From the NCBI GenBank assembly GCA_964016885.1, contig OZ024744.1:31620001-31684000 (forward strand): a DNA stretch of 64,000 nt, written 5' to 3'. Positions 20,263 to 49,537 of the stretch are shown one piece after another (position 1 is the stretch's first letter; the number at the start of each line of letters is the position of its first letter). Under the pieces are notes generated by a model. That model worked only from the letters and a program-made list of their open reading frames with translations, was not told the origin of the DNA and ran no database searches. This DNA is from Eledone cirrhosa (lineage: Eukaryota). The translations under genes were made by a program, and so were the position numbers.

Positions 20263-20442
20263 ATTATTATTATTATTATTATCGATCTGTTCGGACGCTT
20301 TTTGCTCGCTCCCAGTAAGTCGCTTTATTTCCCTGTTATAATTATTTGTTGCTTAATTCTTCTTCTTGTGTAAGGAATATAAGCCCTTGGCCCAAATATT
20401 TGAACATTTAACTTAGAAAAAAAAAATTGTTTTAAAAAGAGC

Positions 20443-22162: not shown

Positions 22163-22194
22163 TCCTTTCTCACTTACCCCGTTTCTCATCCAAC

Positions 22195-24887: not shown

Positions 24888-25163
24888 TTTGAGAAATGAA
24901 AGATTGAGAGAGGTCATTGGCCCTGGTGGTCAGGGTGGCCGTGGTCTTTTGTGTGGTTTTCGCCACGAGTAACCCTCGGAGGTTTCCACCCTATTGGGGA
25001 ATTTTTCATTGTTTCAATTTTCATTTTTATTGTTTATATATATATGTCTTTTTTTTCTTTTCGTATATAAATAATAAACATATTTACACACACAAAACCC
25101 ACATCGTACCGTCCAGTGCCGTCTGATATGTTTTTCTTGATGTCAGCCCTTGTGGCCAATAAA

Positions 25164-25279
25164 GGTTAACTTTACCTTTTATCCTTACGGGGTCGATAAA
25201 ATAAAGTACCAGTAATGTACTGGGTTATTGCTGGCCTTGTGCCTAAAGTAGAAACAATTATTATTATTATTATTATTAT
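25164..25279 (+). mobile_element. 5'-truncated SINE with (ATT)n tail
   Basis: GGTTAACTTTACCTTTTATCCTTACGGGGTCGATAAAATAAAGTACCAG...GGCCTTGTGCCTAAAGTAGAAACA(ATT)n. Confidence 0.85.
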
Positions 25280-25505
25280 GGCCGCACATGTGTGAAGACA
25301 GACAAGTCTGCGGGGGAAACGGTTCGTAGCTTTAAGCTGTTTTAAAGTGTCTTTTTTTTGTATTTTCTTGTCATTAACGAAACTTAAGGTACACATCTTG
25401 ATTTAAAGAGAGGGATACCTCTCAATATTCGGGCTTTAAGCCCGAATATTCAGATTTATTTTTTAAATCTTCGAAAAAGAATCGCTTCCCCACCAAAAGA
25501 AAATT

Positions 25506-27488
25506 ATGGAAATTTTCGACCTTGAAACGGTAAACAACGTTCAGGTCAAAAGTTTAAAGGCAGCCACTGCAGATTTCACCACGACTACGACGGCTACACT
25601 CATGCCTGTCATCCACTCTACTGAATGTGAAGGCAAAACTAAAAAGCTACCATCACAATCTTCTGGCATAGCAGCAGTATCATCTGAAAACGACATCACC
25701 ACCACCGCCGCCACCACCACCACAACAACAACAACTCAGAGCAATAACGACAAAAACACCGACAGCTTCAATGTAAACAAGGATGGCGGTGGCAACAGCA
25801 AGAATGACAACAACAACAATAAGAGCATCAGAAACACCACATTTGCTGCAGCAGCAGCAGCAAAAACAAAGCGCTTATTGAATATCGATATTGATATTAG
25901 CGATAAAGACGAACAGTTGGCCAAAGCGTGGAGGCTAATTAAACGGGAGAAGTCCTGGGCAAACCTGACCATCCCGGACGAGGCAATAGCGGCCATGCAA
26001 AGGAGGACGGTGCTCTTTCGATGTATTTCGGTGCAGACACGAAAAGTGGAACTTGCGAGCCAAGCAGAGGTAGAGGCTGCGTTGGAGTACATCGGAAGTA
26101 ACATAGAGTACAAAGCAAGAGGCAAACAGTTCGGTACCATCTCGGTACTGTTCAAATCCGAGGCCCTCGCTATTAAGCACTCGGTGATCCCCTGCAGAAC
26201 GGAACGCATTATCATGCATCCGTCCTATATGGGTAAAAGGACAGTGAAGGTACGCATTCCCAGCATCCCACCAGGAATGAACATATGGTGGCTGCTGGGA
26301 TGCGTAATCGAGGAGGGGACAGACACCACCCTCCTGGACATCAAAAGGACAGAGTGAGAAGACTGGTCCGGAATGGATTTGGAGATTCTTCTCCAAATGA
26401 AACCGGAGGATATAAATAACACCCCAAATTTTGCCCGCCTGCAGGACGGGACAACAATCCAACTAATAATTGACGGAAGAAGGCCACGTTGCTTCGTTTG
26501 CGGGGAAGCCACGCATCTTCAAGCCTTCTGCCCTCAGCGTAAAAATGCAGGGGTCGCAAACCTCCTTTGTTGCCAACGCCAGTGTCAGCACGGAAAGCTG
26601 CACCACCACCACCACCACCAAAAACAACATCAACAAAAACACGGACACCAACATCAAAAGCAGCCGGATCACCACCAACACCAAAACCAATCCAAGGAGA
26701 AAACGAGGAAAGCTCTCCCACTCCCCCCTACCCCCCCCCAACTATATACATAGACAAAAAAAAAAAATAAACGCACACACAGACACAGAGACACTCACAG
26801 ACACAGACCCTTTGTCTTCCAGCAGCGAAGATGAAGGAAAACCCAAAAGTGCAAAAAAACAGAGAAAACTCACACAAAAAAAAAGCCCCTACAAAACACA
26901 AAAACACACACAACAAAAAATACAGACACCACTAACGCAGACACTTCCCCAATAACATCAGCACCATCAGCAACATCGACACCACCTCCACAATCCCCGA
27001 AACGCAAACAACCTAAACAAACACAAGTACAAATAAACACACAAATACCTGAAATTGCAGACACCACACCTACAACAAACATAGACATACCCGAAACAAC
27101 ACCACCAAAACCATCGCCACCACCTTCACCAAAACGAAAACAAATAAAACCACACCAACAAAATGTTAAAAACTTCGTGCTTGTCAGAAGGGCCAACGAT
27201 AAACTGATGGCCCTCTTAGCGCGAAGCGAGGACATTCAAACAGAGGGGGAGATTTTTGAAATGAGCACATTTTGCGTGCCAGAAGATTTGCTTCTGGTCC
27301 GAATGTCACTCAATTCTTTCAAAGAAATTCGAGAGAGCTTTCCTCAAGACGTGGGAAACCCGAATGTGAAACCCACATCAAGACTTTTAAAGGGGTTCCC
27401 AAAAGAAACCCCACCAACCATGGAGGTCGAACCACCCGACCTTCACAAGACCCAGGAGGTAAGTAAACCTTCCCTCTCTCTCTCTTAG
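25506..27488 (+). pseudogene. Copy B ORF1 (divergent gag-like, CCHC knuckle)
   Basis: 283-aa N-terminal ORF, in-frame TGA at 26355, then CFVCGEATHLQAFC and a Pro/Thr-rich tail with frameshifts. Confidence 0.8.
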
Positions 27489-27497
27489 CTTACCAAT

Positions 27498-30400
27498 ATG
27501 GCCATATTAAGAGTAGGAAGTTTAAATGTTCGCGGCCTCGGGTCACCCTGGAAGCAGGGTCGCCTGCTCAACGACCTCCGGTCGCTGGAAATGGATGTGA
27601 TTGCCGTAAGCGAGACCAGAATTTCCGACACGCGTGCACTAGCCCCCATTTCGACGACTATCAGATCTTCGCATCTGTTAGCAGGCCGGGAATGGGGGTG
27701 GGGTGGCAATGCTGTTTAGGAAAGGACTGGATCTCGAGGTAAGGTCGATCTTCCGGGAACCGGACGGTAAGTTGGTGGTCTTGGATGTGAGCAGTAGTGA
27801 AGGTGGTGCCTTTAGACTGCTGGCCGCCTACGCCCCTACAGGGGCCGGACGACCTGACTTCTTTAGGCGCCTGGAGACCTTTCTGGGTACGTCTCGCCCT
27901 TTACTGTTAGCGGGGGACTGGAATGGCATCTTAGACGCACGCTGGGATTGTGTGGGAGTAGCCGATAGGAGCGGGGGGTGCAAAAGCCTCAAGCACCTAC
28001 TCAGCCAGTTCCAACTGTCTGACAGGTATCGACTAGATTTCCCCAATGTGCCAGTATGGACATGGACCAACCGAATGGGGTCATCTAGATCGTATATAGA
28101 CAGAATCTTCATTAGGAAAATAGATAGAAATAGTGTGGGCTGTCCACTTTTTAAAACGGTCGCCTATTCAGATCACAAATTTGTGATCTGTACGGTCGAC
28201 CTAAATAAAACGCGTAGGTTAGGACCGGGTTACTGGAAGCTGAACATGTCATTTCCGGCACGTGAGGCTTACAGGGACCGAGTCAATAAGTTAGTTAAGG
28301 GGGGATCATCAACAACAGATGGTGGGGGCTCTCAAAAGAGAGATTAGAGTAACTTCGATAGAGTTCAGCAAAGAACTAGCGTTAGAGAAAAATAGAAAGG
28401 AGGGGAGCTGGTAGATAAGTTAGACGAGGCTATTTGTAGTGGCATCGCAACTGACGTGCTAGCGGCGAGAATGGCATTAGACCATTTCTTCAATGCCAAA
28501 CACGAAGGTTGCATTGTCAGAGCTAAGGCGCGTGCGCTGAGAAACGAGGGAACTAAAGCTGTTCGATGGGCCCGCGTGGCGGAGGCGCAGCGTGGTAATA
28601 AAACCACAATTCGGTCTTTGGCGGACCGAGACGGACACGAGATAAGCGATTCCAAGCGGATGTGTGAGGCCTTTCGCCAGCACTTTGCTCGGTTGTTCGG
28701 GAAGAGTGGCGGGTCAGAGAGAGTAGCGGATTTCAGTCCCTACCTTGACGGCTTGCCGCGCATCTCGACGGTCGACGCTGAGCGCTGCGAAAGGCCGATT
28801 ACTTCAGCCGAAATTCAGGACGCCCTTGTCGGCTGCATGAGGCGCAAGTCACCAGGCTTGGATAGCCTGCCCTACGAGCTTTACGTAAATATGCCAGACT
28901 TGTTCTCCGAACTCCTTGAAGCACTCTACTGTAACTGGCAGCAGAATGGGAGTATTCCCAGTTCTGTGAGCAGGGGAGTGGTGACGCTGATAAGGAAAGA
29001 CGAGAACAAGAGGGATACATTAAACAACTTCAGGCCCATAACTCTGCTCAACACAGAGTTTAAGATTTTGGCCAAGGTGTTAGCAAAGAGATGCGCTTGT
29101 CGTCGGGGATTTGGTTGGGGAGGCGCAAACTTGCGCAATCCCAGCCAGGTCCATACACGACAATCTCCACCTAATGCGATACATCATAGAGAGGGTAGGG
29201 TGTAAACCTGGCTTCGGTGGGGCACTGATCAATTTAGATCAATCGAAAGCATTCGATAGGGTCGACCATCGGTATCTCGAGTTTGTCCTCAAAGCAGCTG
29301 GCTTCGGCCCTGTCTTTAGAAGCTGGATCGTTGCAATGCACAGCGGCACACGCTCGGTGGTCAAAGTTAATGGCCACCTCTCGGAACCATTTCGGCTCTC
29401 CCGATCGGTCCGTCAAGGGTGCCCTCTCTCTTCCCTTCTGTACGTATTGACTCTCGAGCCTTTACTGCGGAAGCTGGAGCTGTTGCAGGGCATCCCGCTC
29501 GAACCGGGACGTGGAAAGGCGGTGTCGGCTTATGCGGGCGACATCACCGTGATGGTGTCGAACACCTCAGAAATCGAGGTGGTCGGCGCCTTATTGAAAG
29601 AATATGAAAGGTTGACAGGAGCCAAACTTAACCCGGAAAAGTCGGTGGGCTTGCAGCTCGGAACCTGGAGAGGCAAGCCCATGCCGTCCAACAGCGTCGT
29701 GGGGCGCTGGACGGACGGACCAGTAAAGTTGCTCGGGGTTTGGTTCGGACCAGACCTCCAGGTGGAAAAGAATTGGGACGAGGTAACGAGCAGAGTAGCC
29801 AGTCTCACCCAAAAATGGGCTGGGAGGAAGCTATCACTGAAAGGTCGCGCGGAGGTGGCGAATGCGTACATCGCGTCCGTCATCTATTACCGCCTAACCG
29901 TCGTGCCTTGCCCCCGTCCGCGCCTCGTCAAGTTGGAACGGCTCCTCTTCAAATTCTTGTGGAGGGGACAAGTTCCGTTGGTGAGGCGGTCCATCTGCTG
30001 CCAGCACCCTCAACACGGAGGGCTGGGCATGCCGTGGCTAATGATGCGCAGACATGCGTCGAGGCTGCGACATCTCCAGATATTCTGCCTCAATGGTGAA
30101 CAGGTGTGGTCGCCGTTTATCAGACGGGCCTTTCCGCAGCTCATTTCTTTGACTGAGCTGCAGTCCTGGGTCAAGAAGAGACCGAGACTGGGTGACTGGC
30201 ACCTGGAATGTTGCCAGGCACTCACTGCCCTCTACCAAGCGGGCAATGCGATCAGTGGAACTTCCACTCTCGAGTTTTATAGAGGATTAGTGGTGGGCAA
30301 GTGCGATGACGCACTCGGAGAAGCTTTGGGCCTCGACGAAGTCGAACTGACCAGTCTGTACCGGAGGACTTTTGAGCCGGGGACGATGGACAATTTCCAG

Positions 30401-30901
30401 AAATCCCTCGCTTGGCAGTGCTACCGGGGGGCACTGCCGGTTCGGGATAAACTCTACAGGCACGGAAGTGCTGTCAGACGGACCTGCCCAAGATGCGCAC
30501 AGAACGACGAAACCGTTCTGCACGCACTTGTCCAATGTCCGTGCATTACTGACTTGTGGAGTTATGTCGAACAGCTACTGTCGCGTGTGGAACGAATCCA
30601 GTTATCGGCCGAGTCCATAGTGAAGATCGAGCCGCCACCTTCCTTAGGTCAGGAAGAGCAGGACATTTTCCTCTGTCTGGTGGCAGTTGCGAAAGAGATT
30701 ATATGGTGGACCAGGTTGAAAGGACTAAAGACAGACACTTTTCTCTTCGGCCAATCCCTCATCAACTTCTTCAAGTTTCACCTGGAAAGGAGGGTGAGGG
30801 TGGAGAGAGAAGTGCTGCCCCCCAGTACATTTGCTAAAAGGTGGGTGAATGTGGCAAGAATGGCTCGTGTGAATGGGCCTACTCTGACCATGCGCCTATA
30901 G
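27498..30901 (+). pseudogene. Copy B ORF2 (APE-RT-zinc finger), frameshifted, YADD changed to YAGD
   Basis: ORF pieces at 27498, 27703, 28456 and 29111-30901 are collinear with the intact ORF2 of copy C. Confidence 0.9.
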
Positions 30902-31179
30902 GCTAGCTAACTTGAGGAGAGGGGTGCTCTCCTGGGTGCCCTAGAAGCGCAGGGTGGTTCAGGATTGGTGGGGTACCCGAATCACCCCAGGGTCGTCCAC
31001 CTCCTATCGGGGAATTTATTTTGTTATATTTTGCATAGTTTATTTTATATTTTATATTTTCATTGTTAAATTAGTCTTGCCATTGTGCACTTTTACTCGA
31101 CCTTATTGTAAACCCCCACTGTCCCTGTCTTTGTATTGTCCCCTACATGTCGGCCCTTGTGGCTAATAAATGAAATAAT

Positions 31180-31350
31180 TGTTTCTACTTTTGGCACAAG
31201 GCCAGCAATTACCCAGTGCATTACTGGTACTTTATTTTATCGACCCCGTAAGGATGAAAGGCAAAGTCAACCTCGGCGGGATTTGAACTCAGATCGTAAA
31301 GGGACGTAACTATGCTGGAAAGCATGGCGTCCGACCCTCTACCGATACTG
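31180..31350 (-). mobile_element. SINE inserted antisense into the tail of copy B, with a 10-bp TSD
   Basis: ATGAAATAAT at 31170-31179 and 31351-31360 flanks the reverse-complement SINE. Confidence 0.85.
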
Positions 31351-31376
31351 ATGAAATAATAATAATAATAATAATA

Positions 31377-31411
<35 letters not shown>

Positions 31412-31720
31412 AGTTGCATTTATCTTGCTTTATGTTCATACGAGTTATCACCAAGTCACAACCAGTGACTTCAAGAGACAACAAGGTTCGCCATGTTCAA
31501 GAAAGAACATACATACTCACACATGCATCCTTAGTGTTTAGACTTGTGATGTACTTATATTGACAGGATCTTCCTTAGTATATGGGCAGTTCCCATTAGT
31601 ACTATCTTTTGTATTTCTCCTATACGCGGGTTTCCTGGGATTTGCGATAAGTAATCATTAGACCCCTTAGGTATCATTCCCAGAGCGCCTACAACCACTG
31701 GTATTGTTTTAGTTTATTAT

Positions 31721-31902
31721 CGGTGGATTGGCAGTATCGGTAGAGGGTCGGACGCCATGCTTTCCAGCATAGTTACGTCCCTTTACGATCTGAGTTCAAA
31801 TCCCGCCGAGGTTGACTTTGCCTGTCATCCTTACGGGGTCGATAAAATAAAGTACCAGTAATGTACTGGTTAATTGCTGGCCTTGTGCCTAAAGTAGAAA
31901 CA

Positions 31903-31953
<51 letters not shown>
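31721..31953 (+). mobile_element. Near full-length tRNA-derived SINE (central part resembles the Deu/Nin domain) with (ATT)n tail
   Basis: A box TGGCAGTATCGG, B box GAGTTCAAATCC, TCATCCTTACGGGGTCGATAAAATAAAGTACCAG, long (ATT)n tail. Confidence 0.85.
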
Positions 31954-32169
31954 GAATGCTATGGTTGACGGAGGCTCGGCTCTGTAAGGTATTGTAAATT
32001 TTGAACGCTATAACAATTGTAAATTGTTTAAAACTTTAACGAACTTGTAGACAAAAACACCCTCCTCCTCGTGAGAGGGGTCTTTCTGCCCGTTATTTGG
32101 CCCTTCGGGGTTAAATAACTGCTTATTGGGGTTTTGTGCCCAATATTTATTTAAAAAAAAAATAACAAC

Positions 32170-34267
32170 ATGGCTACGAAAAAGAATTTTCATAGGTCAC
32201 TCCCACTCATTCCGTCTTCTTCTTCCTCAATCATCACTACAGCAGAGAAGATTGTCTCTCTCCCTCCCTTCTTTAAATGTGTCTCTCTCCCTCCCTTCTC
32301 TTTCGCAAGCGACGAAAGAAAAGAAAAGTCTCGTGCAAAGTGTGCAAGATTTCTCCACGACGACGACGACAACGACGAAACAGGTATGCGGGAAATACGA
32401 AAACCCATTTCATTCGTCTGACGTCAGGAATAATAGCAGTAGCAGCCGTAATAACAACAGCAACAGTGACAATGAAAACAACAGTAGCAGCCGCAACAGC
32501 ATCACCAGCAGCATAAACAACAACAGCATTAGCAGCAGCAACATCAACAACAACCACAGCAACAGCGGCGGAGGCAGTAGTCGTAGTACCTGCAGCAACA
32601 ACAAAAGTAACAGCAGCTCTGACGACAACAACAACAGCAGCAAAGAAAAAACAATCTCATTTGCAGGTATTGCGAAGAACCTGGAAACAATCCTCATAAC
32701 AAATGAGGAATTAGAGGAAGCGAAGAAGATGGTGATAAAGACCGGACACCGAGCAATCTGCAAGGCAGCGGAAACATTTTTCGAAACCCAACAGCACTGT
32801 ACGGTCACGTACCGTACAGTAAGTACAAAATCCCGTAGGGTTGAAAGAGCCACAGAGGCTCAAATACAAAAAGCCTTGGGGGTCTGTGTGGCAGCGGAAA
32901 ACGCACATCACCCGAGGCAAAAAATATGCCACCGTAGACGTACTTTTTGCCACACCCCAGGAGGCAAAGGCTCAATCCGTAGGGACCCTAAGGAGCGAGG
33001 AAATAGTGTTGGTGCCCTCCTACTGCGAGCAAAAAATTGTGAGGGTCAAACTGACCCACGTTCCCCCCGGGATGACCCCTCTTGGCTGGCCGCGTCTGTC
33101 CTCGTCGGAATCGAGGACAAAACAACTGTACTGCAAGTACAGAAAAAAGTAAGAGAAGATTGGGTCGGCACCTCCATTGAGATGCTAATCCAAACCAACC
33201 AGGAGTGCATCGAAGCTATCCCGGATGTGATAGACTTCGATAACGGCACTCAACTGCCCATAAGTGTTGAGGGCAAACGCCCGAAATGCTTTCGCTGTGG
33301 ATTGAAGACTCACCTCAGGGCCTTCTGCAACGAGAAGACCCTGAGAAAGGAGAAAACCCCCATCCTTCCGAAACCGGCTCCACCGCTACCAGCAACAGGA
33401 CAAGCGGCAACCAGGAACGATAGGTCCGTCGCACCCATACCCACGCCACGGAAATCAAAAACAGCAATAGCAGTGGAAATATTAACAACAACAACAGCAA
33501 TACCAAATGCAGCTACAACAGAGACTCCAGTGCAAACATCACCAACAACAACAAGTGAAAGAGTGGAGCTGGTACCCCTCCCCGACCTCACAGAATCAGA
33601 CATGGAGTGTGCGGTGGGAGAGGGATGGCAAAAGGTCGTAAGAAGGCACAAACGCAGAAGCAGCGCATCGTCGCCTTTGAAAAGGGAGGAAAGAAATGAG
33701 AAAAGGGTAAAGTCTACTGCAAAGAGACTCACAGCAGCAACACCACCAACACCATCACCACCCACACTAGCACCACCATCACCACCGGCGACAACCCCAC
33801 CGCCAACAACACCTTCAACACCACCACCACAAGCACCAACATCGCAAACACAACAACAAAACACACACACCCAGCAACAACGACAAGAAAATAGCAGAAC
33901 CACACCCCACCCCCAGAAAAACAAATGCACGGCAATAAATACACACAACAAGAAACTAATGACTTACATAATTGAACACACAGACATTTCACAACAGGAC
34001 TACATAATACCAGCACCAATCAAAACGCCAACTAACATAAGACTGCTAAAAATAGCACAGAAACAATACACAAATATTAAAACGAAATTCCCCAACGCAG
34101 TTGGTGATTTCAGGGACCTAGGAGGAACCATCAATCGAAGAGTATACTCAGACATTCTCTTAGAAGAGCCGACGACCAGCCGAAGGGACGATTCAACGGT
34201 CCCTTCACCAGACGATCAAGTGAAAAGGGATGTAAAAACCATCCCTCCTCTACCAAAAGTACGGTAA
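32170..34267 (+). CDS. Copy C ORF1, nucleic-acid-binding protein (RRM-like region and CCHC knuckle); apparent small indels
   Basis: CFRCGLKTHLRAFC (CX2CX4HX4C). The homologous segment RKTHITRGKKYATVDVLF...VPSYC is in another frame between ~32880 and ~33068; the likely ATG at 32170 is also out of frame with the 713-aa ORF. Confidence 0.7.
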
Positions 34268-34302
34268 GTGGTCTTTCCCATCTTTTCCACTCTATTTTAA
34301 AC

Positions 34303-37300
34303 ATGACCTCACTCAGAATAGGCAGCATAAATGCGCGTGGCTTGGGGTCGTCATGGAAGCAGGGTCACCTGCTCAACGACCTCAGGTCACTAAACATAGA
34401 TGTAGTGGCCATCAGCGAGACCAGAATCTCCGAAGCACGGGCCTTCGCACCGATCTTCGGCGGCTTCGATGTGTACGCATCTCCCAGCCGTCCTGGATCC
34501 GGTGGAGGAGTTGCTGTGCTTTTTCGGAGAGGTTTGGATCTCGCCATACGGGCCATCTTCCTGGACCCAGAGGGTAAGCTGGTGGTGCTGGACGTGACCA
34601 GCGGAGACGGGCAAGCTTTCAGGCTAGTGGCCGTCTATGCCCCGACAGGAGCAGGGCGGCCTGATTTCTTCCGGCGTCTGGAGACCTTTCTTGGAACGTC
34701 CCGCTCTTTAGTGTTAGTGGGCGACTGGAACGGGATCTTAGATGCACGCTGGGACTGTGTGGGATTAGCGGATAGGGGTGGAGGGTGCAAGAGCCTCACC
34801 AACCTGCTCAGGCGTTTTGAACTGTCTGACAGGTACCGATTGGATTTCCCGAATGTGCCAATGTGGACTTGGACAAACCGCATAGGGTCATCCAGATCAT
34901 ATCTAGATAGAGTATTTTGTAGGGAAATAGATAGGTCTAGCATAGGCTGTCCACAATTCAAGATAGTCAGCTACACGGACCACAAATTCGTGATCTGTGT
35001 GCTTGACTTAGATAGGCTTCATAGACGAGGACCCGGCTACTGGAAGCTAAACGCGTCCTTTCCAGCGCGCAAGGCCTACAGAGACCGGATTAGCGAACTA
35101 GTTAAGCGGGCATTGACGGGGGCCATCGTCAACAACAAGTGGTGGTTTGCTCTGAAAAGAGCGATTAGAATAGAATCGATTAGGTTTAGTAAGGCTTTAG
35201 CAATAGAGAAAAATAGAGCAGAGGGAGAACTAGTTAGAAAATTAGACGAGGCGCTTAGCAAAGGCATTGCGACCGACGTGCTTGCGGCGAAATTGGCCCT
35301 TGACCAATTCTTCAATGCAAAGCACGAAGGCTGCGTTGTCAGAGCAAGGGTGCGTGCTCTCAGACACGAGGGGACGAAAGCCGTGCAATGGGCCCGAGTG
35401 GCGGAGGCGCGTCGTGGCAACAAAGCCACGATCCGGTCTTTGGTGGACCACGACGGGCGCATGCTACTCGATCCCGGGCAAATGTGTGAAGCTTTTCAGC
35501 GACACTTCGCTCAGCTGTTCGGGGGCAGCGGTGGGCCGGGTAGAGGGATGGACTTTAGTGTCTACCTCGACGGACTGCCGCGGCTCTCGGCCACTGAGGC
35601 GAAGTGTTGCGAAAAGCCGATAACAGCCGCTGAAGTAAGGGAGGCAATGACTGGCTGCACAAGGGGTAAATCGCCTGGTTTGGATGGTCTGCCCTATGAA
35701 CTTTACGTACAGATGCCAGACTTGTTCGGAGGCCTCTTGGCGGACGTCTACTGCAACTGGCAACAGAACGGGAGAATTCCCAGTTCTGTGAGCCGAGGAG
35801 CGGTGGCACTGCTGAGAAAGGATCCGAACAAGGGGGATAACATAGAAAATTTCCGGCCCATAACTCTGCTAAACACAGAGTTTAAGATTTTGGCCAAGGT
35901 GCTAGCAAAGAGGTTGGCGCTTGTCGTTGGTGGTCTGGTGGGAGAGGCGCAGACATGCGCCATTCCCGACAGATCCATCCACGACAACCTCCACCTCATG
36001 CGATACATCGTAGAGAGGGTAGCTAGGGAACCTGGCACGGGTGGGTCCTTGATCAATTTAGATCAGTCGAAAGCTTTCGATAGGGTCGACCATCGTTACC
36101 TAGCGGCAGTCCTGAGGGCGGCTGGCTTTGGGCCCGTCTTCAGAGGCTGGATCGCTGCCATGCACAGCGACATCTGCTCTGTGGTGAGAGTGAACGGTCA
36201 CCTGTCTGAACCGTTCAACATCATGCGCTCGGTCCGCCAAGGATGTCCCCTCTCGTCCCTCTTGTACGTATTGACGCTCGAGCCATTACTGCACAAACTG
36301 GAGACGTTGAGGGGAGTCCCGCGCGAACTAGGATGCGGAAGATCCGTGTCAGCATATGCGGACGATGTCACCGTAGTGGTGTCGAACGCCAAACACATCG
36401 AGGCGATCGGCACTACACTAAGAGAATACGAAGCGGTGACAGGAGCAATGATCAACCAGGAAAAGTCAGTGGGCCTGCAGCTCGGCACCTGGAGAGGCAG
36501 GTCCATGCCGTCCAACAGCGTCGTCGGGCGCTGGACGGACGGACCGGTTAAATTGCTAGGGGTCTGGTTCGGTCCGGACCTCCAGACGGACAAAAACTGG
36601 GACGAGGTGACGAGCAGGGTGGCTTCTCTCACCCAGAAATGGGCGGAGAGGAAGCTATCCCTGAAAGGTCGAGCGGAGGTGGCTAACGCGTACATCGCGT
36701 CTGTCATCTGCTACCGCCTAACCGTCGTACCTTGTCCTAAGCCTCGCCTGACTGCGCTGGAGCGTTTGCTCTTTCGCTTTTTGTGGAAGGGACGTGCTCC
36801 GATGGTCAGGCGGTCCATCTGTTGTCAACACCCGCTACGTGGAGGGCTGGGCATGCCGTGGCTGATGATGCGCAGGCACGCGCTCAGGCTACGACATCTC
36901 CACCTCTTCCTCGACGGTGATCAGGTGTGGTCGCCGTTTGCTAGACGCGTTTTTCCCCAGCTCGTTTCCTTGACGGAGCTGCAGTCCTGGGTCAAGCGAA
37001 GACCGAGAGGGAGCGCCTGGAGACTGGAATGTCTTCAGGCGCTCACAGCCCTCGACCAATCGGGCAATGTGATCGGTGGAAACTCCACCTCGGCGTTCTA
37101 TAGAGGATTAGTGGAGGGGAAGAGCGACGACGTACTTGGGGAAACTCTAGGCGTCGACGAAAATCAACTAGCCAATCTCTTCGGAAGAACTTTCGGGCCG
37201 GGGCCTATGGACAACTTCCAGAAATCTCTGGCCTGGCAGTGCTACCGAGGAGCCTTGCCAGTTCGGGATAAACTCTACAGGCATGGAGGTGCCGTCAGCC

Positions 37301-37722
37301 GGGCATGTCCGAGATGCGCGCAGGGCGACGAAACCGTCCTGCACGCACTCGTCCAGTGTCCGAAAATTGCTGACTTGTGGGTTTATGTCGAACACCTGCT
37401 GTCGCGTTTAGGACGGATCCGGCTATCATCTGAGTCCATCGTGAGGATTGCCCCGCCCTCCTCCTTTAGCCGGGAAGGGCAGGCAGTTTTTATCTGCCTG
37501 GTGGCCATGGTGAAAGAGATAGTATGGTGGACACGTTTGAAAGGGCTGAAGACGAGCACTTACCTCTTCGGTGATGCTCTGATTGACTTTTTCAAATTTC
37601 ATTTGAAAAGGAAAATCAGAGTAGAGAGGGAAGTGCTCTCTTCCCAGCATTTTGTTGAAAGATGGGTGAGAGAAGCAAGAATGGCCCGAGTGAATGGGCC
37701 TACTCTGAGTATATATCTGTAA
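34303..37722 (+). CDS. Copy C ORF2: intact 1139-aa APE endonuclease, reverse transcriptase and C-terminal zinc finger (Tx1/L1 clade)
   Basis: INARGL, ISET, VYAP, GDWN, YLDR, TDH (APE); KSPGLDG, RPITLLN, DQSKAFD, RQGCPLS, YADD, LLGV (RT); CPRC...H...C. Confidence 0.95.
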   Translation: MTSLRIGSINARGLGSSWKQGHLLNDLRSLNIDVVAISETRISEARAFAPIFGGFDVYASPSRPGSGGGVAVLFRRGLDLAIRAIFLDPEGKLVVLDVTSGDGQAFRLVAVYAPTGAGRPDFFRRLETFLGTSRSLVLVGDWNGILDARWDCVGLADRGGGCKSLTNLLRRFELSDRYRLDFPNVPMWTWTNRIGSSRSYLDRVFCREIDRSSIGCPQFKIVSYTDHKFVICVLDLDRLHRRGPGYWKLNASFPARKAYRDRISELVKRALTGAIVNNKWWFALKRAIRIESIRFSKALAIEKNRAEGELVRKLDEALSKGIATDVLAAKLALDQFFNAKHEGCVVRARVRALRHEGTKAVQWARVAEARRGNKATIRSLVDHDGRMLLDPGQMCEAFQRHFAQLFGGSGGPGRGMDFSVYLDGLPRLSATEAKCCEKPITAAEVREAMTGCTRGKSPGLDGLPYELYVQMPDLFGGLLADVYCNWQQNGRIPSSVSRGAVALLRKDPNKGDNIENFRPITLLNTEFKILAKVLAKRLALVVGGLVGEAQTCAIPDRSIHDNLHLMRYIVERVAREPGTGGSLINLDQSKAFDRVDHRYLAAVLRAAGFGPVFRGWIAAMHSDICSVVRVNGHLSEPFNIMRSVRQGCPLSSLLYVLTLEPLLHKLETLRGVPRELGCGRSVSAYADDVTVVVSNAKHIEAIGTTLREYEAVTGAMINQEKSVGLQLGTWRGRSMPSNSVVGRWTDGPVKLLGVWFGPDLQTDKNWDEVTSRVASLTQKWAERKLSLKGRAEVANAYIASVICYRLTVVPCPKPRLTALERLLFRFLWKGRAPMVRRSICCQHPLRGGLGMPWLMMRRHALRLRHLHLFLDGDQVWSPFARRVFPQLVSLTELQSWVKRRPRGSAWRLECLQALTALDQSGNVIGGNSTSAFYRGLVEGKSDDVLGETLGVDENQLANLFGRTFGPGPMDNFQKSLAWQCYRGALPVRDKLYRHGGAVSRACPRCAQGDETVLHALVQCPKIADLWVYVEHLLSRLGRIRLSSESIVRIAPPSSFSREGQAVFICLVAMVKEIVWWTRLKGLKTSTYLFGDALIDFFKFHLKRKIRVEREVLSSQHFVERWVREARMARVNGPTLSIYL

Positions 37723-37982
37723 ATTAAAGGTGGAAAACTGGGAGAGGGCACTTGCCTTGGTGGTCAGGGTCATTGTGGCTTTTTACTGGGCTTTCACCAC
37801 AAATGTCCCTCCGAAGTCTCCCCCCTATTGGGGAATTTTTCATTGTTATTTTCATTGTTATTTTTGTTACATCCTCTGTTTTTGTTTTTTTTACACGCAG
37901 AAATGCCCATTTGTACCGTCCTGCATTGTCCTGCACTGTCCTTAATGTCTACTTTATGTAAACCCTTGTGGTTAATAAAGAA

Positions 37983-38027
<45 letters not shown>

Positions 38028-38236
38028 GGCGACCTACGTAGGAAATCGTATTATCGTGAGCTCCGCAAAGGTTTGTTATTTCCGTTCGTTTAAAAATTGC
38101 CATTTATGGAAAATTTTATTGTAAGCTGTTTATAAGCACACATACATTGTTTTCCGAAAAGGACACCCAAAAAGATTGGGGCCTTGTGCCCAAAATTTTA
38201 ACTTTTATTATTATCCAAAAATTTCTTTGAAAAAAC

Positions 38237-40224
38237 ATGGCTAATTCCCCTCTGCACGAAGCAGCTGAAAGCCTTCCTCACAAAATAACACCTCACACCG
38301 ACACCACCATTGTAAATGTTACTACGTTTGCCAACACGAAAAAAAATATAAGCAGTAGCAATATTTTAAATTTGTCTCAGGCAGACATTCATTTCCCGCC
38401 ATTACCAATGACTGCAGGTGTTAAACCCTCCTCCACCACCACCACCGCGACAACCACCACCACCACCACCACCACCGCGACACCAGAAACAAAAGAAGAA
38501 AAAAATAAATTAACTCGTGACGTCGAAATGAAATCAAGCAAAATGGACTCTTCCCCACCAAAGACGACTGACGTCACCACCACCACAACTGAAAATAAAA
38601 TTAATATTAACGATAGCAACAACAACAACAATGACATTATAAAACCGACCCTCAGTTTCGCCATCGTAGCAAAACAATTCGAAGCGTTCACGGTAACTCA
38701 AGAAGATTTAGAAAATGCCAAACAAATGGTAAAGAAAGATGGGTACAGGGTCAGCCTCACCCCCCACCTAATAAAATGGAGCATCGGCGCCTGTGCACCG
38801 TGTCGTATAGAACAATAAATGTAAAATCGCGCCGAGTGGAACGGGCATCCGAGTCCCAAATCCAAAAAGCTTTGGGACATGTGTGGGCAAGAAAAACCCA
38901 CATCAGACGTGGGCAAAAGTATGGAACCGTGGATGTGTTCTTTGAAACACCAGATGAGGCTAGAGAACACTCCATGGCCCCATTAAAAAGTGACGACCTC
39001 ACACTCGTCCCAAGCTATTGTGGCCAGAGACTCGTAAAGATCAGGGTGACCCACGTTCCACCGGCCATCGAAATTCCCTGGCTAATAGCGGCTGTCCTCG
39101 CCGGCATCGAAGCCAACACGAAAATAATAGCAGTAGCAAAAGAAAAGCAGGAAAACTGGTCGGGATCTGGGATGGAGCTCCTGATCCAAGCGGACCAAAA
39201 AAGCATTGAGGATATCCCAGAGGTAATAGACCTCACTGACGGCAGCCACCTCACGGTAATTGTCGAGGGCAGAAGACCTAGGTGTGTCGTTTGTGGTGAA
39301 GGAACCCACCTAAGGGCTTTCTGCCCTCAGGCTAAAAGGTTGAGGCCACCTCTCCTACCCACCCCAGTGACACAACCATCAACACCACCAGTAGCAGAGA
39401 TGGCAGCAACAACTGTAGCAGCAACAACAGAAGCAACTATAACAGCAACAACCCCAGCAACAGTAGCAAAACCAACACCACTACCACCACCAGCAAAACC
39501 AACACCACCACCACCCAACGCTTCAGAACTAGTACCAGCGCCTACACCATCCACCGCACCACAACCAAAACTAACGGCTGTGGAGGATTTTCCACTCCCC
39601 GGCCTATCACAACTGGAGACAGATTGTGACGACGAGGAGTGGGAAACGATATCCGGGAAAAAAAAAAGAAACCAAAAAAGAAAAAATTCTCTTCCTTCCC
39701 CCTCCAAAAACAAAATACAGAGGGAAACAAATAAACTAAGAAACAAAAAAGTTAGGACAGATATGCCACCATCCACACCAGCATCACCAACCCCATCAAC
39801 CCAAACACCAACACCATCACCATCATTATCCCCAGCACCACCATCACCTACACCACAAAAGTCACCAAAATGCGAAACAGAAACAAACCCACAACAAACG
39901 CAAACAAAACAAGACAACCAAAACGATACACACTACACAGCATTAAATTTGAACAACAAGCAATTATTACACTACATCCAACACAACACCAGCATCACAG
40001 AAAAAGACTACACAACAACCCCAAAATTCACACCACCTCCACACATACAAATCACTCGCATCACACAGAAAACGTACATGACACTAAAACAAAAATTCCC
40101 CAAAGACATCGGAGACTTCCGACAAGCACTCTCCAGGAGGATTTATAAGGACATCCTTCCTGAGGAGGCCACAGGCAGTGAAAAGGTTGGAAAAGCCGTC
40201 CTTCCCCTACGAGAAGTAAGGTAA
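38237..40224 (+). CDS. Copy D ORF1 (one frameshift near 38765)
   Basis: 38237-38818 and 38776-40224 overlap; CVVCGEGTHLRAFC knuckle. Confidence 0.75.
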
Positions 40225-40258
40225 GTGGTCTTTCCCATCTTTTCCACTCCTTTTCAAC

Positions 40259-43200
40259 ATGACCTCACTCAGAATAGGCAGCATAAATGCGCGTGGCTTG
40301 GGGTCGTCATGGAAGCAGGGCCACCTGCTCAACGACCTCAGGTCACTAAACATAGATGTAATGGCCATCAGCGAGACCAGAATCTCCGAAGCACAGGCTT
40401 TCGCACCGATCTTCGGCGGCTACGATGTGTACGCATCTCCCAGCCGTCCGGGATCGGGGGGAGGAGTTACTGTGCTTTTTCGGAGAGGTTTGGATCTTGC
40501 CATACGGGCCATCTTCCTGGACCCTGAAGGTAAGTTGGTGGTGCTGGACGTGACCAGCGGAGACGGGCAAGCTTTCAGGTTAGTGACCGTCTATGCCCCG
40601 ACAGGAGCAGGGCGGCCTGATTTCTTCCGGCGTCTGGAGACCTTTCTTGGAACGTCCCGCTCTTTAGTGTTAGTGGGCGACTGGAACGGGATATTAGATG
40701 CACGCTGGGATTGTGTGGGATTAGTGGATAGGGGTGGAGGGTGCAAGAGTCTCACCAACCTGCTCAGACGTTTTGAACTGTCTGACAGGTACCGAATGGA
40801 TTTCCCGAATGTACCAATGTGGACTTGGACAAATCGCATAGGGTCATCCAGATCATATCTAGATAGAGTATTTTGTAGGGAAATAGATAGGTCTAGCATA
40901 GGCTGTCCACAATTCAAGATAGTCAGCTACACGGACCACAAATTCGTGATCTGTGTGCTTGACTTAGATAGGCTTCATAGACGAGGACCCGGCTACTGGA
41001 AGTTAAACGCGTCCTTACCAGCGCGCAAGGCCTACAGAGACCGGATTAGCGAATTAGTTAAGCGGGCGTTGACGGGGGCCATCGTCAACAACAAGTGGTG
41101 GTTTGCTCTGAAAAGAGCAATTAGAATAGAGTCCATTAGGTTTAGTAAGACTTTAGCAATAGAGAAAAATAGAGCAGAGGTAGAATTAGTTAGAAAATTA
41201 GATGAGGCGCTTAGCAAAGGCATCGCGACCGACGTACTTGCGGCGAAATTGGCCCTTGACCAATTCTTCAATCAAAGCACGAAGGCTGCGTTGTCAGAGC
41301 TAGGGTGCGTGCTCTCAGACACGAGGGGACGAAAGCCGTTCAATGTGCCCGAGTGGCGGAGGCGCGTCGTGGCAACAAAGCCACGATCCGGTCTTTGGTG
41401 GACCACGACGGGCGCATGCTACTCGATCCCGGGCAAATGTGTGAAGCTTTTCAGCGACACTTCGCTCAACTGTTCGGGGGCAGTGGCGGGCCGGATCGAG
41501 GGATGGACTTTAGTGTCTACCTCGACGGACTGCCGCGGCTTTCGGCCACTGAGGCGGAGTGTTGCGAAAAGCCGATAACAACCGCTGAAGTACGGGATGC
41601 AATGACTAGTTGCACAAGGGGTAAATCGCCTGGTTTGGATGGTCTGCCCTATGAACTTTACGTACAAATGCCAAACTTGTTCGGAGGCCTCTTGGCGGAC
41701 GTCTACTGCAACTGGCAACAGAACGGGAGAATTCCCAGCTCTGTGAGCCGAGGAGCGGTGGCGCTGCTGAGAAAGGATCCGAACAAGGGGGATAACATAG
41801 ATAAATTTAGGCCCATAACTCTGCTAAACACAGAGTTCAAGATTTTGGCCAAGGTGCTAGCAAAGAGGTTGGCGCTTGTCGTTGGTGGTCTGGTGGGAGA
41901 GGCACAGACATGCGCCATTCCCGACAGATCCATCCATGACAACCTCCACCTCATGCGATACATCGTAGAGAGGGTAGCTAGGGAACCTGGCACGGGTGGG
42001 TCTTTGATCAATTTAGATCAGTCGAAAGCCTTCGATAGAGTCGACCATCGTTACCTAGCGGCAGTCCTGAGGGCGGCTGGCTTTGGGCCCGTCTTCAGAG
42101 GCTGGATCGCTGCCATGTACAGCGACATCTGCTCTGTGGTGAGAGTGAACGGTCACCTGTCGGAACCGTTCAACATCATGCGCTCGGTCCGCCAAGGATG
42201 TCCCCTCTCGTCCCTCTTGTACGTATTGACTCTCGAGCCATTACTGCACAAACTGGAGACGTTGAGGGGCGTCCCGCGCGAACTAGGATGCGGAAGATCC
42301 GTGTCAGCATATGCAGACGATGTCACCGTAGTGATGTCGAACGCCAAACACATCGAGGCGATCGGCACTACACGAAGAGAATACGAAGCGGTGATAGGGG
42401 CAATGATCAACCAGGAAAAGTCAGTGGGCCTGCAGCTCGGCACCTGGAGAGGCAGGTCCATGCCGTCCAACAGCGTCGTCGGACGCTGGACGGACGGACC
42501 GGTTAAATTGCTAGGGGTCTGGTTCGGTCCGGACCTCCAGACGGACAAAAACTGGGACGAGGTGACGAGCAGGGTGGCTTCTCTCACCCAGAAATGGGCG
42601 GAGAGGAAGCTATCCCTGAAAGGTCGAGCGGAGGTGGCTAACGCGTACATCGCGTCTGTCATCTGCTACCGCCTGACCGTCGTACCTTGTCCTAAGCCTC
42701 GCCTGACTGCACTGGAGCGTCTGTTCTTTCGCTCTTTGTGGAAGGGACGCGCTCCGATGGTCAGGCGGTTCATCTGTTGTCAACATCCGCTACGTGGAGG
42801 GCTGGGCATGCCGTGGCTGATGATGCGCAGGCACGCGCTCAGGCTACGACATCTCCACCTCTTCCTCGAATGTGATCAGGTGTGGTCGCCGTTTGCTAGA
42901 CACGTATTTCCCCAGCTCGTTTCCTTGGCGGAGCTGCAGTCCTGGGACAAGCGAAAACCGAGAGGGAGCGCCTGGAGACTGGAATGTCTTCAGGCGCTCA
43001 CAGCCCTCGACCAATCGGGCAATGTGATCGGTGGAAACTCCACCTTGGCGTTCTATAGGGGATTAGTGGAGGGGAAGAGCGACGACGTACTTGGAGAAAC
43101 TCTAGGCGTCGACGAAAATCAACTAGCCAATCTCTTCGGAAGGACTTTCGGGCCGGGGCCTATGGACGACTTCCAGAAATCCCTGGCCTGGCAGTGCTAC

Positions 43201-43677
43201 CGAGGAGCTTTGCCAGTTCGGGATAAACTCTACAGGCATGGAGGTGCCGTCAGCCGGGCATGTCCGAGATGCGCGCAGGGCGACGAAACCGTCCTGCACG
43301 CACTCGTCCAGTGTCCGAGCATTGCTGACTTGTGGGTTTATGTCGAACACCTGCTGTCACGTGTAGGACGGATCCAGCTATCAGCTGAGTCCATCGTGAG
43401 GATTGCCCCGCCCCCTTCCTTTAGCCTGGAAGGGCAGGCAGTTTTTATCTGTCTGGTGGCCATGTCGAAAGAGATAGTATGGTGGACACGTTTGAAAGGG
43501 CTGAAGACGAGCACTTACCTCTTCGGTGATGCCCTGATTAACTTTTTCAAATTTCATTTGAAAAGGAAAATCAGGGTAGAGAGGGAAGTGCTCTCTTCCC
43601 AGCATTTTGTTGAAAGATGGGTGAGAGAAGCAAGTATGGCCCGAATGAATGGGCCTTTTCTGAGTATGTGTCTGTAA
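40259..43677 (+). pseudogene. Copy D ORF2 (APE-RT-zinc finger), single frameshift near 41271
   Basis: TTCAAT-CAAAGCAC versus TTCAATGCAAAGCAC in C (1-bp deletion); otherwise collinear, YADD intact. Confidence 0.9.
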
Positions 43678-43921
43678 ATTAAAGGTGGAAAACTGGGAGA
43701 GGGGACTTGCCCTGGTGGTCAGGGCCACTGTGGTCTTTTAATGGGCTTTCTCCACAAATGTCCCTTGGAAGTCTCCCCCGTATTGGGGAATTTTTCTTTG
43801 TTATTTTATTTCAACCTCTGTTTTTTTTTACACGCAGAAATGCCCATTTGTACCGTCCTGTATTGTCCTGTACTGTCCTTAATGTCTACTTTATGTGAAC
43901 CCTTGTGGTTAATAAAGAAAA

Positions 43922-43978
<57 letters not shown>

Positions 43979-43979
<1 letters not shown>

Positions 43980-46600
43980 CCATTTGTTCAATGCGAAACA
44001 CGAAGGTTGCATTGTTAGAGCTAAGGCGCGTGCGCTGAGAAACGAGGGAACCAAAGCTGTTCGATGGGCCCGCACGGCAGAGGCTCAGCGTGGTAATAGA
44101 ACCACAATTCGGTCTTTGGCGGACCGAGACGGACACGAGCTAAGCGATTCCAAGCGTATGTGTGAGGCCTTTCACCAGCACTTTGCTCGGTTGTTCGGGG
44201 GGAGTGGCGAGTCAGAGAGATTAGCGGACTTCAGTCTCTACCTTGACGGCTTACTTCAGCCGAAATTCAGGACGCCCTTGTCGGCTGCATGAGGCGCAAG
44301 TTACCCGGTTTGGATGGCCTGCACTATGAGCTTTACGTAAATATGCCAGACTTGTTCTCCGATCTCCTCGAAGGACTCTATTGCAACTGGCAGCAGAATG
44401 GGAGTATTCCCAGTTCTGTGAGCAGGGGAGTGGTGACGCTGATAAGGAAATACGAGAACAAGAGGGATACAATAGACAACTTCAGGCCCATAACTCTGCT
44501 CAACGCAGAGTTTAAGATTTTGGTCAAGGTGTTAGCAAAGAGATTGACGCTTGTCGTCGAGGATTTGGTTGGGGAGGCGCAAACTTGTGCAATCCCAGCC
44601 AGGTCCATACTCGACAATCTCCACCTCATGCGATATATCATAGAAAGGGTAGGGTGTAAACCTGGCTTCGGTAGGGCACTGATCTATTTAGATCAATCGA
44701 AAGCATTCGATGGGGTTGACCATCGGTATCTGGAGTTTGTCCTCAAAGCAGCTGGCTTCGGCCCTGTCTTTAGAAGCTGAATCGCTGCAATACGCAGCGG
44801 CACACACTCGGTGGTCAAGGTTAATGGCCACCTCTCGGAACCATTTCGGCTCTCCCGATCGGTTCGTCAAGGGTGCCCTCTCTCCTCCCTTCTGTACGTA
44901 TTGACACTCGAGCCTTTACTGCGGAAGCTGGAGCTGTTGCAGGGCATCCCGCTCGAACCGGGACGTGGAAAGGTGGTATCGGCTTATGCGGACAACATCA
45001 CCGTGATGGTGTCGGACACCTCAGAAATCGAGGTGGTCGGCACCTTATTGAAGGAATATAAAAGGTTGACAGGAGCCAAACTTAACCCGGAAAAGTCGGT
45101 GGGCTTGCAACTCGGAACCTGGAGAGGCATGCCTATGCCATCCAACAGCATCGTGGGGCGCTGGACAGGTGGATCGGTAAAGTTGCTCGGGGTTTAGTTC
45201 GCATCAGACCTCCAATTGGAAAAGAATTGGGACGAGGTAACGAGCAGAGTGGCCAGACTCACCCAAAAATGGGCTGGGAGGAAGCTATCACTGAAAGGTC
45301 GGGCGGAGGTGGCGAATGCGTACATCGCGTCCGTCCGTCGTGCTTTACCCCCGACCACGCCTCGTCAAGTTGGAACGGCTCCTCTTCAAATTCTTGTGGA
45401 AAGGACAAGTTCCATTGGTGAGGCTGTCCATCTGCTGCCAGCACCCTCTACGCGGAGGGCTGGGCATTCCATGGCTTATGATGCGCAGACATGCGCTAAG
45501 GTAGCGACATCTCCAGATAGTCTGCCTGTGTGGTCGCCGTTTATCAGACGGGCCTTTCCGCAGCTCGTTTCTGTGACTGAGCTGCAGTCCTGGGTCAAGA
45601 AGAGACCGAGACTGGGTGACTGGCACCTGGAATGTTGCCAGGCACTCACTGCCCTCTACCAAGCGGGCAATGCGATCAGTGGAACTTCCACTCTCGTGTA
45701 CTATAGAGGATTAGTGGTGGGCAAGTGCGATGACGCACTCGGAGAAGCTTTGGGCCTCGACGAAGTCGAACTGACCAGTCTGTACCGGATGACTTTCGAG
45801 CCGGGGACGATGCACAATTTCCAGGAATCCCTCGCTTGGCAGTGCTACCGGGGGGCACTGCCGGTTCTGGATAAACTCTACAGGCACGGAAGGGCTGTCA
45901 GACGGACCTGCCCAAGATGCGCACAGAACGACGAAACCGTTCTGCACGCACTTGTCCAATGTCCGTGCATTACTGACTTGTGGAGTTATGTCGAACAGCT
46001 ACTGTCGCGTGTGGAACGAATCCGGCTATCGGCCGAGTCCATAGTGAAGATCGACCCGCCGCCTCCTTAGGCCAGGAAGAGCAGGATATTTTCCTCTGTC
46101 TGGTGGCAGTTGCGAAAGAGGTTATATGGTGGACCAGGTTGAAAGGACTGAAGACAGACACTTTTCTCTTCGGCCAATCCCTCATCAACTTCTTCAAGTT
46201 TCACCTGGAAAGGAAGGTGAGGGTGGAGAGAGAAGTGCTGTCCTCCTGTACATTTCCTAAAAGGTGGGTGAATGTGGCGAGAATGGCTCGTGTGAATGGG
46301 CCTACTCTCACCATGCGCCTATAGGCTAGCTAACTTGAGGAGAGGGTGCTCTCTCTGGGTGCCCTAGAAGCGCAGGGTGGTTCAGGATTGGTGGGGTACC
46401 TGAGTGACCCTAGGGTCGTCCACCCCCTATAGGGGAATTTATTTTGTTATATTTATGCTTAGTTTATTTTATATTCTTACATCTTCATTGTTAAATTAGT
46501 CTTGCCATTGTGCACTTTTACTCGACCTTATTGTAAACCCCCACTGTCCCTGTCTTTGTATTGTCCCCTACATGTCGGCCCTTGTGACTAATAAATGAAA
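43979..46600 (+). pseudogene. 5'-truncated Tx1-like LINE copy E (B subfamily)
   Basis: Starts mid-ORF2 (FNAKHEGCIVRAKARA) right after the (ATT)n tail of D; YADN; 3' UTR nearly identical to B. Confidence 0.9.
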
Positions 46601-46609
46601 TCATTATTA

Positions 46610-46803
46610 TTGGATTGGCAGTATCGGTAGAGGGTCGGACGCCATGCTTTCCAGCATAGTTACGTCCCTTTACGATCTGAGTTCAAATCCCGCCGAGGTT
46701 GACTTTGCCTTTCATCCTTACGGGGTCGATAAAATAAAGTACCAGTAATGCACTGAGTAATTGCTGGCCTTGTGCCTAAAGTAGAAACAATTATTATTAT
46801 TAT
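46610..46803 (+). mobile_element. SINE, same family as 31721
   Basis: Near-identical to 31724-31905; begins after ATTATTAT. Confidence 0.9.
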
Positions 46804-46828
46804 TGTTGTTATTGTTGTTGTTGTTGTT

Positions 46829-47080
46829 AGGGCGGTGGATTGACCGTATCAGTTGAGCGTCAGACATGATACTTTGCAGCCTAGAGTTATGGCCCTTTAC
46901 AGTCTAAATTCAAATAATGCCGTGGTGAGCGTTGCCTTTTATATTTACGGTGTCGATAAAATAAAGCACCAGTCCTGCACTGGGGTCGATTTAATCGACT
47001 TTCCTCTCACCCAAAATACACTGACCTATAGTAGAAACCATTCTGGCCTTGGGCCAAAAGTAGAAACAATTATTATTGTT
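46829..47080 (+). mobile_element. SINE, older/longer subfamily
   Basis: GGCGGTGGATTGACCGTATC...GTCGATAAAATAAAGCACCAG...GGCCTTGGGCCAAAAGTAGAAACAATTATT. Confidence 0.75.
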
Positions 47081-47085
47081 ATAAC

Positions 47086-47283
47086 AAGGGCGGTGGATTG
47101 ACAGTATCGGTAGAGGGTTGGACGCCATGCTTTGACGCATAGTTTCGGCCCTTTATGATCTGAGTTCAAATCTCACGAAGGTTAACTTTGCCTTTCATCC
47201 TTACGGGGTTGCTAAAATAAAGTACCAGTAATGTACTGGGATAATTGCCGGCCTTGTGCCAAAAGTAGAAACAATTATTATAA
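47086..47283 (+). mobile_element. SINE, same family
   Basis: GGGCGGTGGATTGACAGTATCGG...GAGTTCAAATC...GGCCTTGTGCCAAAAGTAGAAACAATTATT. Confidence 0.85.
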
Positions 47284-48571: not shown

Positions 48572-48667
48572 TTACAAAATGGTCGTTACTGTGGCGTTGT
48601 TAATCTGCGTGAGTCGACAGAACCATCGTTAGAGCCTTCCACAGAATGACTTGCAATATTTCTTCTC

Positions 48668-48910: not shown

Positions 48911-49537
<627 letters not shown>

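Follow-up and report, generated by a model that had tools for sequence, protein, structure and literature searches.

The ratio of the two proteins of a long interspersed nuclear element (LINE), ORF1p and ORF2p, has so far been explained at the level of translation, by reinitiation or by stop-start coupling. Elements with long terminal repeats (LTRs) have taken another route: the Ty1/copia element EVD of Arabidopsis uses a conserved U1-type splice donor that yields a GAG-only mRNA and also blocks premature termination (PMC5580714), and BARE1 of barley, likewise Ty1/copia, maintains separate RNA pools (PMC3735527). For LINEs, spliced RNAs of human L1, the SpIREs, are described as capable of being copied in cis (PMC5860796), and introns are mentioned in transcripts of other non-LTR elements, with no known role (PMC1636488). 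L1-Tx1 elements are also described as recently active in Octopus vulgaris, with 13 families and 421 insertions (PMC13282606). Here, we analyze an array of L1/Tx1-type LINEs in 64,000 nucleotides (nt) of the genome of Eledone cirrhosa (GCA_964016885.1, contig OZ024744.1, positions 31,620,001 to 31,684,000 of the forward strand). We refer to this whole stretch as the window and count positions from its first letter; features lie on its + strand unless marked otherwise.

Between their two open reading frames (ORFs), these LINEs carry a short motif, GGTAAGT, which an earlier note on this DNA had read as a structure-gated U1 site and as the possible donor of a small intron that fuses ORF1 to ORF2. 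We consider it probable that the motif is a functional U1-type 5' splice site that selection keeps in place where ORF1 ends. For its use, the explanation that we find most plausible, if still somewhat short of probable, is that it would be spliced to an acceptor in the 3' untranslated region (3'UTR), thereby removing all of ORF2 and leaving an ORF1-only mRNA. That U1 binds the motif, that splicing follows, which acceptor takes part and what the arrangement is for are what we infer from DNA; overall, we regard the motif as a conserved cis-signal that is still unexplained and for which splicing is a testable model, not as a demonstrated intron.

A putative splice donor at the ORF1–ORF2 junction

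Both ORFs are present in four LINE copies of the window, A to D, and GGTAAGT stands at the ORF1–ORF2 junction of all four, with its GT at 22155, 27459, 34264 and 40221, that is, 40, 39, 39 and 38 nt ahead of the ORF2 ATG. In A, the donor (22155..22160) falls in ORF1 phase 1 (DQ|GK*), with the ORF1 stop TGA at 22160-22162 and the ORF2 ATG at 22195. In B (27459..27464), it falls in phase 0, a frame that is backed by alignment to the homolog P0141, with the stop TAG at 27486-27488 and the ATG at 27498. In C and D, it falls in phase 2: the donor of C, CG|GTAAGT (34264..34269), includes the ORF1 stop TAA (34265-34267), and that of D, AG|GTAAGT (40221..40226), includes TAA at 40222-40224 and precedes the ATG at 40259. 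The spacers between donor and ATG are 85-92% pyrimidine; that of C (34270..34302) is 89% C/T and has no stable hairpin. The motif, its three phases and the pyrimidine tract behind it had all been pointed out in the earlier note and are confirmed here, with one correction: the junction of C and D is the same, which leaves three independent junctions in the window and not four.

The motif matches the U2-type 5' splice site consensus over positions -2 to +6, with free flanks. Scored with rounded, generic splice-site tables, not trained on the host, it ranks first or tied first among the 251, 291, 308 and 302 GT sites of A, B, C and D (1/308 in C). Donors of at least 10 bits occur in 36 of 2282 60-nt windows, junction sites included, as against four of four junctions. 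By contrast, a count of GGTAAGT followed within 25-40 nt by ATG across the entire window is not above chance (5 observed, 2.96 expected; 16 of 100 shuffles reach 5). It is thus the junction position of the motif, not its window-wide count, that exceeds chance. Two of the 16 ORF1 homolog ends listed, DQGK* and EGKS*, read as the motif would encode, and Rfam returned nothing at the junction. A second perfect donor lies on Gly-Lys codons about 270 nt into ORF2 in A (22466), B (27767) and D (40530), where it is as strong as the junction donor, and with one mismatch in C.

A distant relative retains the donor

A scan of prokaryote genomes led to a related element whose ORF2 is 41% identical to that of the window LINEs. 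It forms arrays on contigs of a metagenome-assembled genome (MAG) labelled Arenicella, and we take these contigs to be mis-binned animal DNA. In the GTDB genome under this label, apparent animal DNA amounts to about 0.6 Mb, on contigs C3-C19 (L127-L161), with long arrays of mostly intact LINEs; these contigs were surveyed, two of them only up to base 20000. The DNA evidence spans two host lineages. The relative shares 25% identity with the window LINEs in ORF1, and the likeness in DNA is almost confined to the core of the reverse transcriptase (RT).

TAAG|GTAAGT occurs 13 nt before the ORF2 ATG at 63 of the 66 junctions of this relative, which supports, more strongly than the earlier note could, the U1-type site proposed there. 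In these 63, positions -2 to +6 are invariant and +7 and +8 vary, and the ORF1 stop finishes one base upstream of the donor, which ranks 1-2 among 360-399 GT sites in six of seven sampled units. Relative to the ORF1 stop, the donors of window and relative are thus placed one nt after it, overlapping it, or 5 or 27 nt before it, and always leave ORF1 nearly whole. The relative's junction has no pyrimidine spacer and no nearby acceptor. Since the 63 junctions belong to related copies in about eight subfamilies, we count them as one further lineage only. Beyond these, a survey of 84 distant outgroup loci provided a single usable ORF2 start, which is without the motif, and no relatives were found among viral contigs.

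Similar words recur elsewhere in the relative. In its main family, a second donor-like word, GTRAGT, stands 15 nt past the ORF2 stop in all 47 pattern matches, varies at +3 only and has a variable pyrimidine run behind it; in some subfamilies, GTAAGT is also present early in the 5'UTR. The pair of donor and pyrimidine run thus recurs at a place where a fusion of ORF1 to ORF2 is impossible; U-rich runs behind donors are splicing enhancers. In the 5'UTRs of contigs C3, C5 and C8, a donor-like word is matched, about 60 nt downstream, by a perfect complement of 11 nt, an arrangement that recalls the hairpin of A described below. The remaining three junctions belong to a family that is 48% identical in ORF2 and lacks the junction donor; it has CAG|GTAAGT 41 nt past the ORF2 stop and, at its junction (contig C13, L146), a stop-start of the SART1 kind, TAATG, which is in frame with ORF2.

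This last family bears on the idea that the motif is a signal for translation, which promotes termination-reinitiation at ORF2 and resembles a donor by accident. The distance of 13-40 nt to the ORF2 ATG would suit such a role, and the TAATG of the donor-less family looks as if the two devices were alternatives. We consider this improbable, given that the conserved span is exactly that of a donor, from -2 to +6, while its register against the stop shifts, and that the word recurs past the ORF2 stop and in the relative's 5'UTRs, where reinitiation is irrelevant.

It is also quite unlikely, in our estimate, that the motif reflects neutral inheritance and chance, that is, a shared ancestor of the window copies, stop codons (TAA, TGA) that supply part of the word, and a coincidence in the relative. 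Several observations fit this, including the window-wide motif count, the equally strong donors inside ORF2, the restriction of the DNA to two host lineages, and the four-fold degenerate ORF2 sites, which are not saturated (52-72% kept pairwise among A-D, outside the C/D pair). Still, only 73 of 163 such sites are identical in A, B and C, which puts the neutral retention of seven bases at about 0.004, to be multiplied by the background of 1.6% for the relative, and the spacer flanking the motif has diverged in both length and sequence.

A candidate acceptor in the 3'UTR

If the junction donor is spliced, the best candidate partner in C is a T tract ending in CAG in the 3'UTR (37880..37900), which ranks first of 434 sites, is preceded by 82 AG-free nt and would close an intron of 3637 nt. 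Its counterpart in D (43818..43837) ranks first of 390, with 64 AG-free nt and an intron of 3617 nt. In both copies, the predicted splice adds 20 residues to ORF1 and brings in a stop 12 nt before AATAAA. The best 3'UTR acceptor is weak in B and A, ranking second and third, respectively, and ranks between first and third in all seven sampled units of the relative, where it lies about 250 nt past the ORF2 stop and keeps its TAG in 60 of 61 copies, while its tract swaps C and T and position -4 varies.

In the mechanism that we propose, the U1-type donor at the end of ORF1 would be joined to this acceptor, and ORF2 would leave as one intron of about 3.6 kb. ORF2p would still be made from unspliced RNA, which would also continue to serve as template for new copies, and the outcome would be a packaging protein made in excess of the endonuclease/RT. 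A splice at the ORF1 stop would leave ORF1 whole and would be expected to avoid nonsense-mediated decay. The model predicts two exact junctions that can be sought in octopus RNA data, 34263/37901 and 40220/43838.

Several points weigh against this model. An AG at the acceptor position of C and D is found in only two of the seven 3'UTRs in the window; B and E, a 5'-truncated copy, have a TAG elsewhere, and the T tracts of A and of two truncated copies contain none. The acceptors of the relative and of the window lie at non-homologous places, and one family of the relative, as noted, has no junction donor at all. Compared with shuffled sequences, the acceptors are modest (fractions of 0.02/0.08 for C, 0.04/0.08 for D, 0.33/0.46 for A, 0.21/0.41 for B and 0.02-0.36 for the relative), because T-rich UTRs easily form such sites, and the invariant AG of the relative proves little, since 58.5% of its 3'UTR columns are invariant among eight subfamilies. 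Furthermore, the 64 ORF1 ends examined in the relative include no intron-less copy, and neither do the 15 joints listed, of 533, for DNA contigs from the four of seven listed sequencing runs that were placed on copy C; one run presumed to be RNA has no coverage at the junction. Finally, the scores depend on rounded, generic splice-site tables.

Alternatively, U1 may dock at the motif without splicing and either suppress cleavage where the A-rich end of ORF1 offers poly(A) signals, the protection from premature polyadenylation that the earlier note had named among its alternatives, or stabilize or retain the full-length RNA. We regard this chief competitor as possible, if rather doubtful. It accounts for a donor that is conserved next to an acceptor that is not, and for the lack of intron-less copies, even via the relative's second donor, whose splicing would spare ORF2 and be copied in cis. 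Moreover, one of the hexamers AATAAA and ATTAAA is found 170-530 nt ahead of the ORF2 ATG in all four window units and in four of the six donor-bearing units of the relative, and U1 suppression of polyadenylation has reportedly been described for retroviral donors (PMC3694450, PMC3826338). Yet two of these six units have no such hexamer, the donor-less family has one at -150, chance hexamers are to be expected in an A-rich ORF1, and the constant placement of the donor at the ORF1 stop is left unaccounted for. Docking would also be compatible with ORF1-only splicing, by analogy with the EVD donor, which does both.

A broader scheme, which we think unlikely, is one of retrovirus-like RNA pools, in which the donors after each stop would be spliced to the 3'UTR acceptor to give mRNAs, and only unspliced RNA would be copied. 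In the relative, the spliced RNAs would then stop short at a proximal AATAAA, about 240 nt from the true end, and would not carry the 3' recognition hairpin. The absence of intron-less copies would thereby be explained; if so, ORF2p would have to be able to act in trans on unspliced RNA. The 3'UTR of the relative (L086, 2050-2720) contains a donor, an acceptor, conserved hairpins and two AATAAA signals, the proximal one lying about 240 nt ahead of the terminal one, and the 48% family shares this layout with two poly(A) signals; Rfam matched nothing in the relative's UTRs. A further acceptor, 160 nt before the relative's ORF2 ATG, had suggested a monocistronic ORF2 mRNA and was dropped, as it lies on a conserved peptide, HPS[FL]YR, and is absent in the window.

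Fusion of the two ORFs and the junction hairpin

The earlier note had proposed, as a possibility, a far smaller intron, of 52-53 nt, that drops the ORF1 stop and the ORF2 ATG and so yields an ORF1-ORF2 fusion protein. Its arithmetic is correct: splicing to the first AG is in frame in C (53 nt), D (52 nt) and B (30 nt), while A needs the second AG. Furthermore, the fused reading of C and D retains a hydrophobic residue at a site where ORF2 homologs carry one, and the in-frame AG of B, at 27488, ranks first of 409 and follows a CT run, though it is only 30 nt from the donor. Introns of 30 nt, however, are below usual sizes. The other acceptors are weak: the first AG of C (34315..34316) scores 2.0 bits and ranks 32/434, that of D scores 3.4 bits (15/390), and the in-frame AG of A ranks 110/372, where its splice would remove the residues LRI of the first endonuclease strand.

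In the relative, fusion is ruled out at all 63 donor junctions, since ORF1 ends before the donor and no acceptor lies behind it, so that an in-frame, nearby acceptor does not accompany the donor wherever it is kept. A spliced RNA that still encodes an RT would moreover be expected to be copied in cis, to judge from what is described of L1 (PMC5860796), and no joint among the 15 listed on copy C begins at 34263, although a rare one is possible among the other 518. A word search with ORF1 gave no match and did not extend to longer fused proteins. Taken together, these results make the proposed fusion intron very improbable.

Structure fares little better as a general feature of the junction. The hairpin that was thought to gate the donor in every copy is supported in A, where nine base pairs cover it (22154..22178; z -3.43, reached by one of 200 shuffles), and does not stand out in B, C or D (z 0.17, -0.09 and -1.09). 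Likewise, shuffled spacers equal the longest complement in 0.2% of trials for A, as against 17%, 30% and 36% for B, C and D. The local closure of the donor is ordinary in the window copies (6-38 of 60 shuffles are equally closed) and, in the relative, stronger in two of six units (0 and 1 of 60). We therefore reject structure gating as a general feature, the hairpin being above shuffles in A alone.

The LINE array and its surroundings

The array (20283..46608) consists of A, B, C, D and the 5'-truncated E, arranged head-to-tail and joined at (ATT)n tails, which belong either to one of these copies or to a short interspersed repeat; further 5'-truncated pieces precede A. Within it, only C has an unbroken ORF2 (34303..37722), which encodes 1139 amino acids with an APE endonuclease, an RT and a zf-RVT domain (Exo_endo_phos, RVT_1 and zf-RVT in Pfam). 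The nearest solved structure is that of L1 ORF2p (E 2e-111), with R2 at E 6e-39. ORF1 of C (32170..34267) belongs to a family with CCHC knuckles, matches for which were found on copy A and on the distant relative, and its 5' half has indels compared with the sister copies. C ends in AATAAA and an (ATT)15 tail (37974..38027), directly after which D begins.

With an ORF2 that combines an N-terminal APE, an RT and a C-terminal zinc-binding domain, an upstream ORF1, a simple-repeat tail, 5'-truncated copies and no LTRs, the element is an L1/Tx1-type LINE, and its features fit membership in the Tx1 clade. Of the ten clusters of ORF1 relatives looked up, three carry a species name, namely Octopus sinensis, O. 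bimaculoides and Argonauta hians, which makes an octopod host likely. An (ATT)n run, from another copy or from a 190-nt repeat, precedes the start of each of A-E; at this single (ATT)n locus, insertion into the element's own tails and a true target choice of the Tx1 kind are indistinguishable.

C and D are 95.6% identical from 34219 and 40177 onward and differ only upstream, in ORF1: at these positions, 45 nt before the donor, they change from unrelated ORF1 DNA to near identity, and the read depth of a DNA run rises about fivefold at the same point. The distant relative likewise combines ORF1s that are 42-100% identical with ORF2s that are 91-100% identical. This pattern suggests that ORF1 modules may have been exchanged close to the ORF1/ORF2 junction in both the window LINEs and the relative. 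The region around the donor of D also has a 14-nt exact word in common with the relative.

The 190-nt repeat, which resembles a short interspersed nuclear element (SINE), occurs at 25163-25279, 31174-31350 (- strand), 31714-31953, 46604-46829, 47091-47287 and 48659-48853, and the starts of B and C sit in tails of it. It ends in GGCCTTGTGCC followed by (ATT)n; GGCCTTGTGCC also ends the LINE of the relative and resembles the 3' end of the window LINEs. The repeat, for which Rfam has no match, is possibly the partner SINE of the LINE. Elsewhere in the window, we note the RT of another LINE type (58610-60646, - strand), 24% identical to ORF2 of C and interrupted by a stop; two tandem arrays, one of 28 copies of a 31-nt unit (7110-7983) and one of five copies of a 116-nt unit (15886-16458); a 180-nt inverted pair (57587-58145); and tRNA-like copies at 49104, 49366 and 61682.

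Comparison with known systems

In the literature searched, which excludes most subscription journals and Repbase, we found no published description of such a junction donor in a LINE. Individual features can nevertheless be compared with several systems. The window LINEs resemble the Tx1 elements Kibi, Koshi and Keno (PMC4494074) as animal APE-RT LINEs residing in a microsatellite, here (ATT)n, and in having a partner-like short repeat with a common 3' motif. They differ in their target, and the available text of that report makes no mention of a splice signal. With SART1 and its UAAUG coupling (PMC2881922), they share the presence of a device for ORF2 at the junction, and the donor-less family of the relative has the in-frame TAATG itself; in the donor-bearing families, by contrast, stop and ATG are 9-35 nt apart. 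As in human L1, donor and acceptor sites lie within a LINE of the L1 clade, functional ones in L1 and predicted ones here. While the L1 sites described in the available text lie in the 5'UTR and ORF1 and give dead-end copies (PMC5860796), the donor described here lies at the ORF1/ORF2 junction, is kept across distant families and has left no spliced copies that we could see.

The closest parallel is provided by EVD and BARE1. Like these elements, the window LINEs have a conserved U1-type donor where the structural ORF ends, and an mRNA for the structural protein alone is predicted; the candidate partner acceptor ranks first to third in all 11 units, although its position is not conserved and its scores are modest against shuffles. 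EVD and BARE1 belong to the LTR elements and have a single polyprotein ORF, and EVD combines a short intron with early termination, whereas the element described here is a bicistronic LINE whose predicted intron of 3.6 kb would contain all of ORF2. If this proves true, a LINE would, by means of a conserved donor that places ORF2 within an intron, have arrived at a solution based on splicing, as is known from LTR elements.

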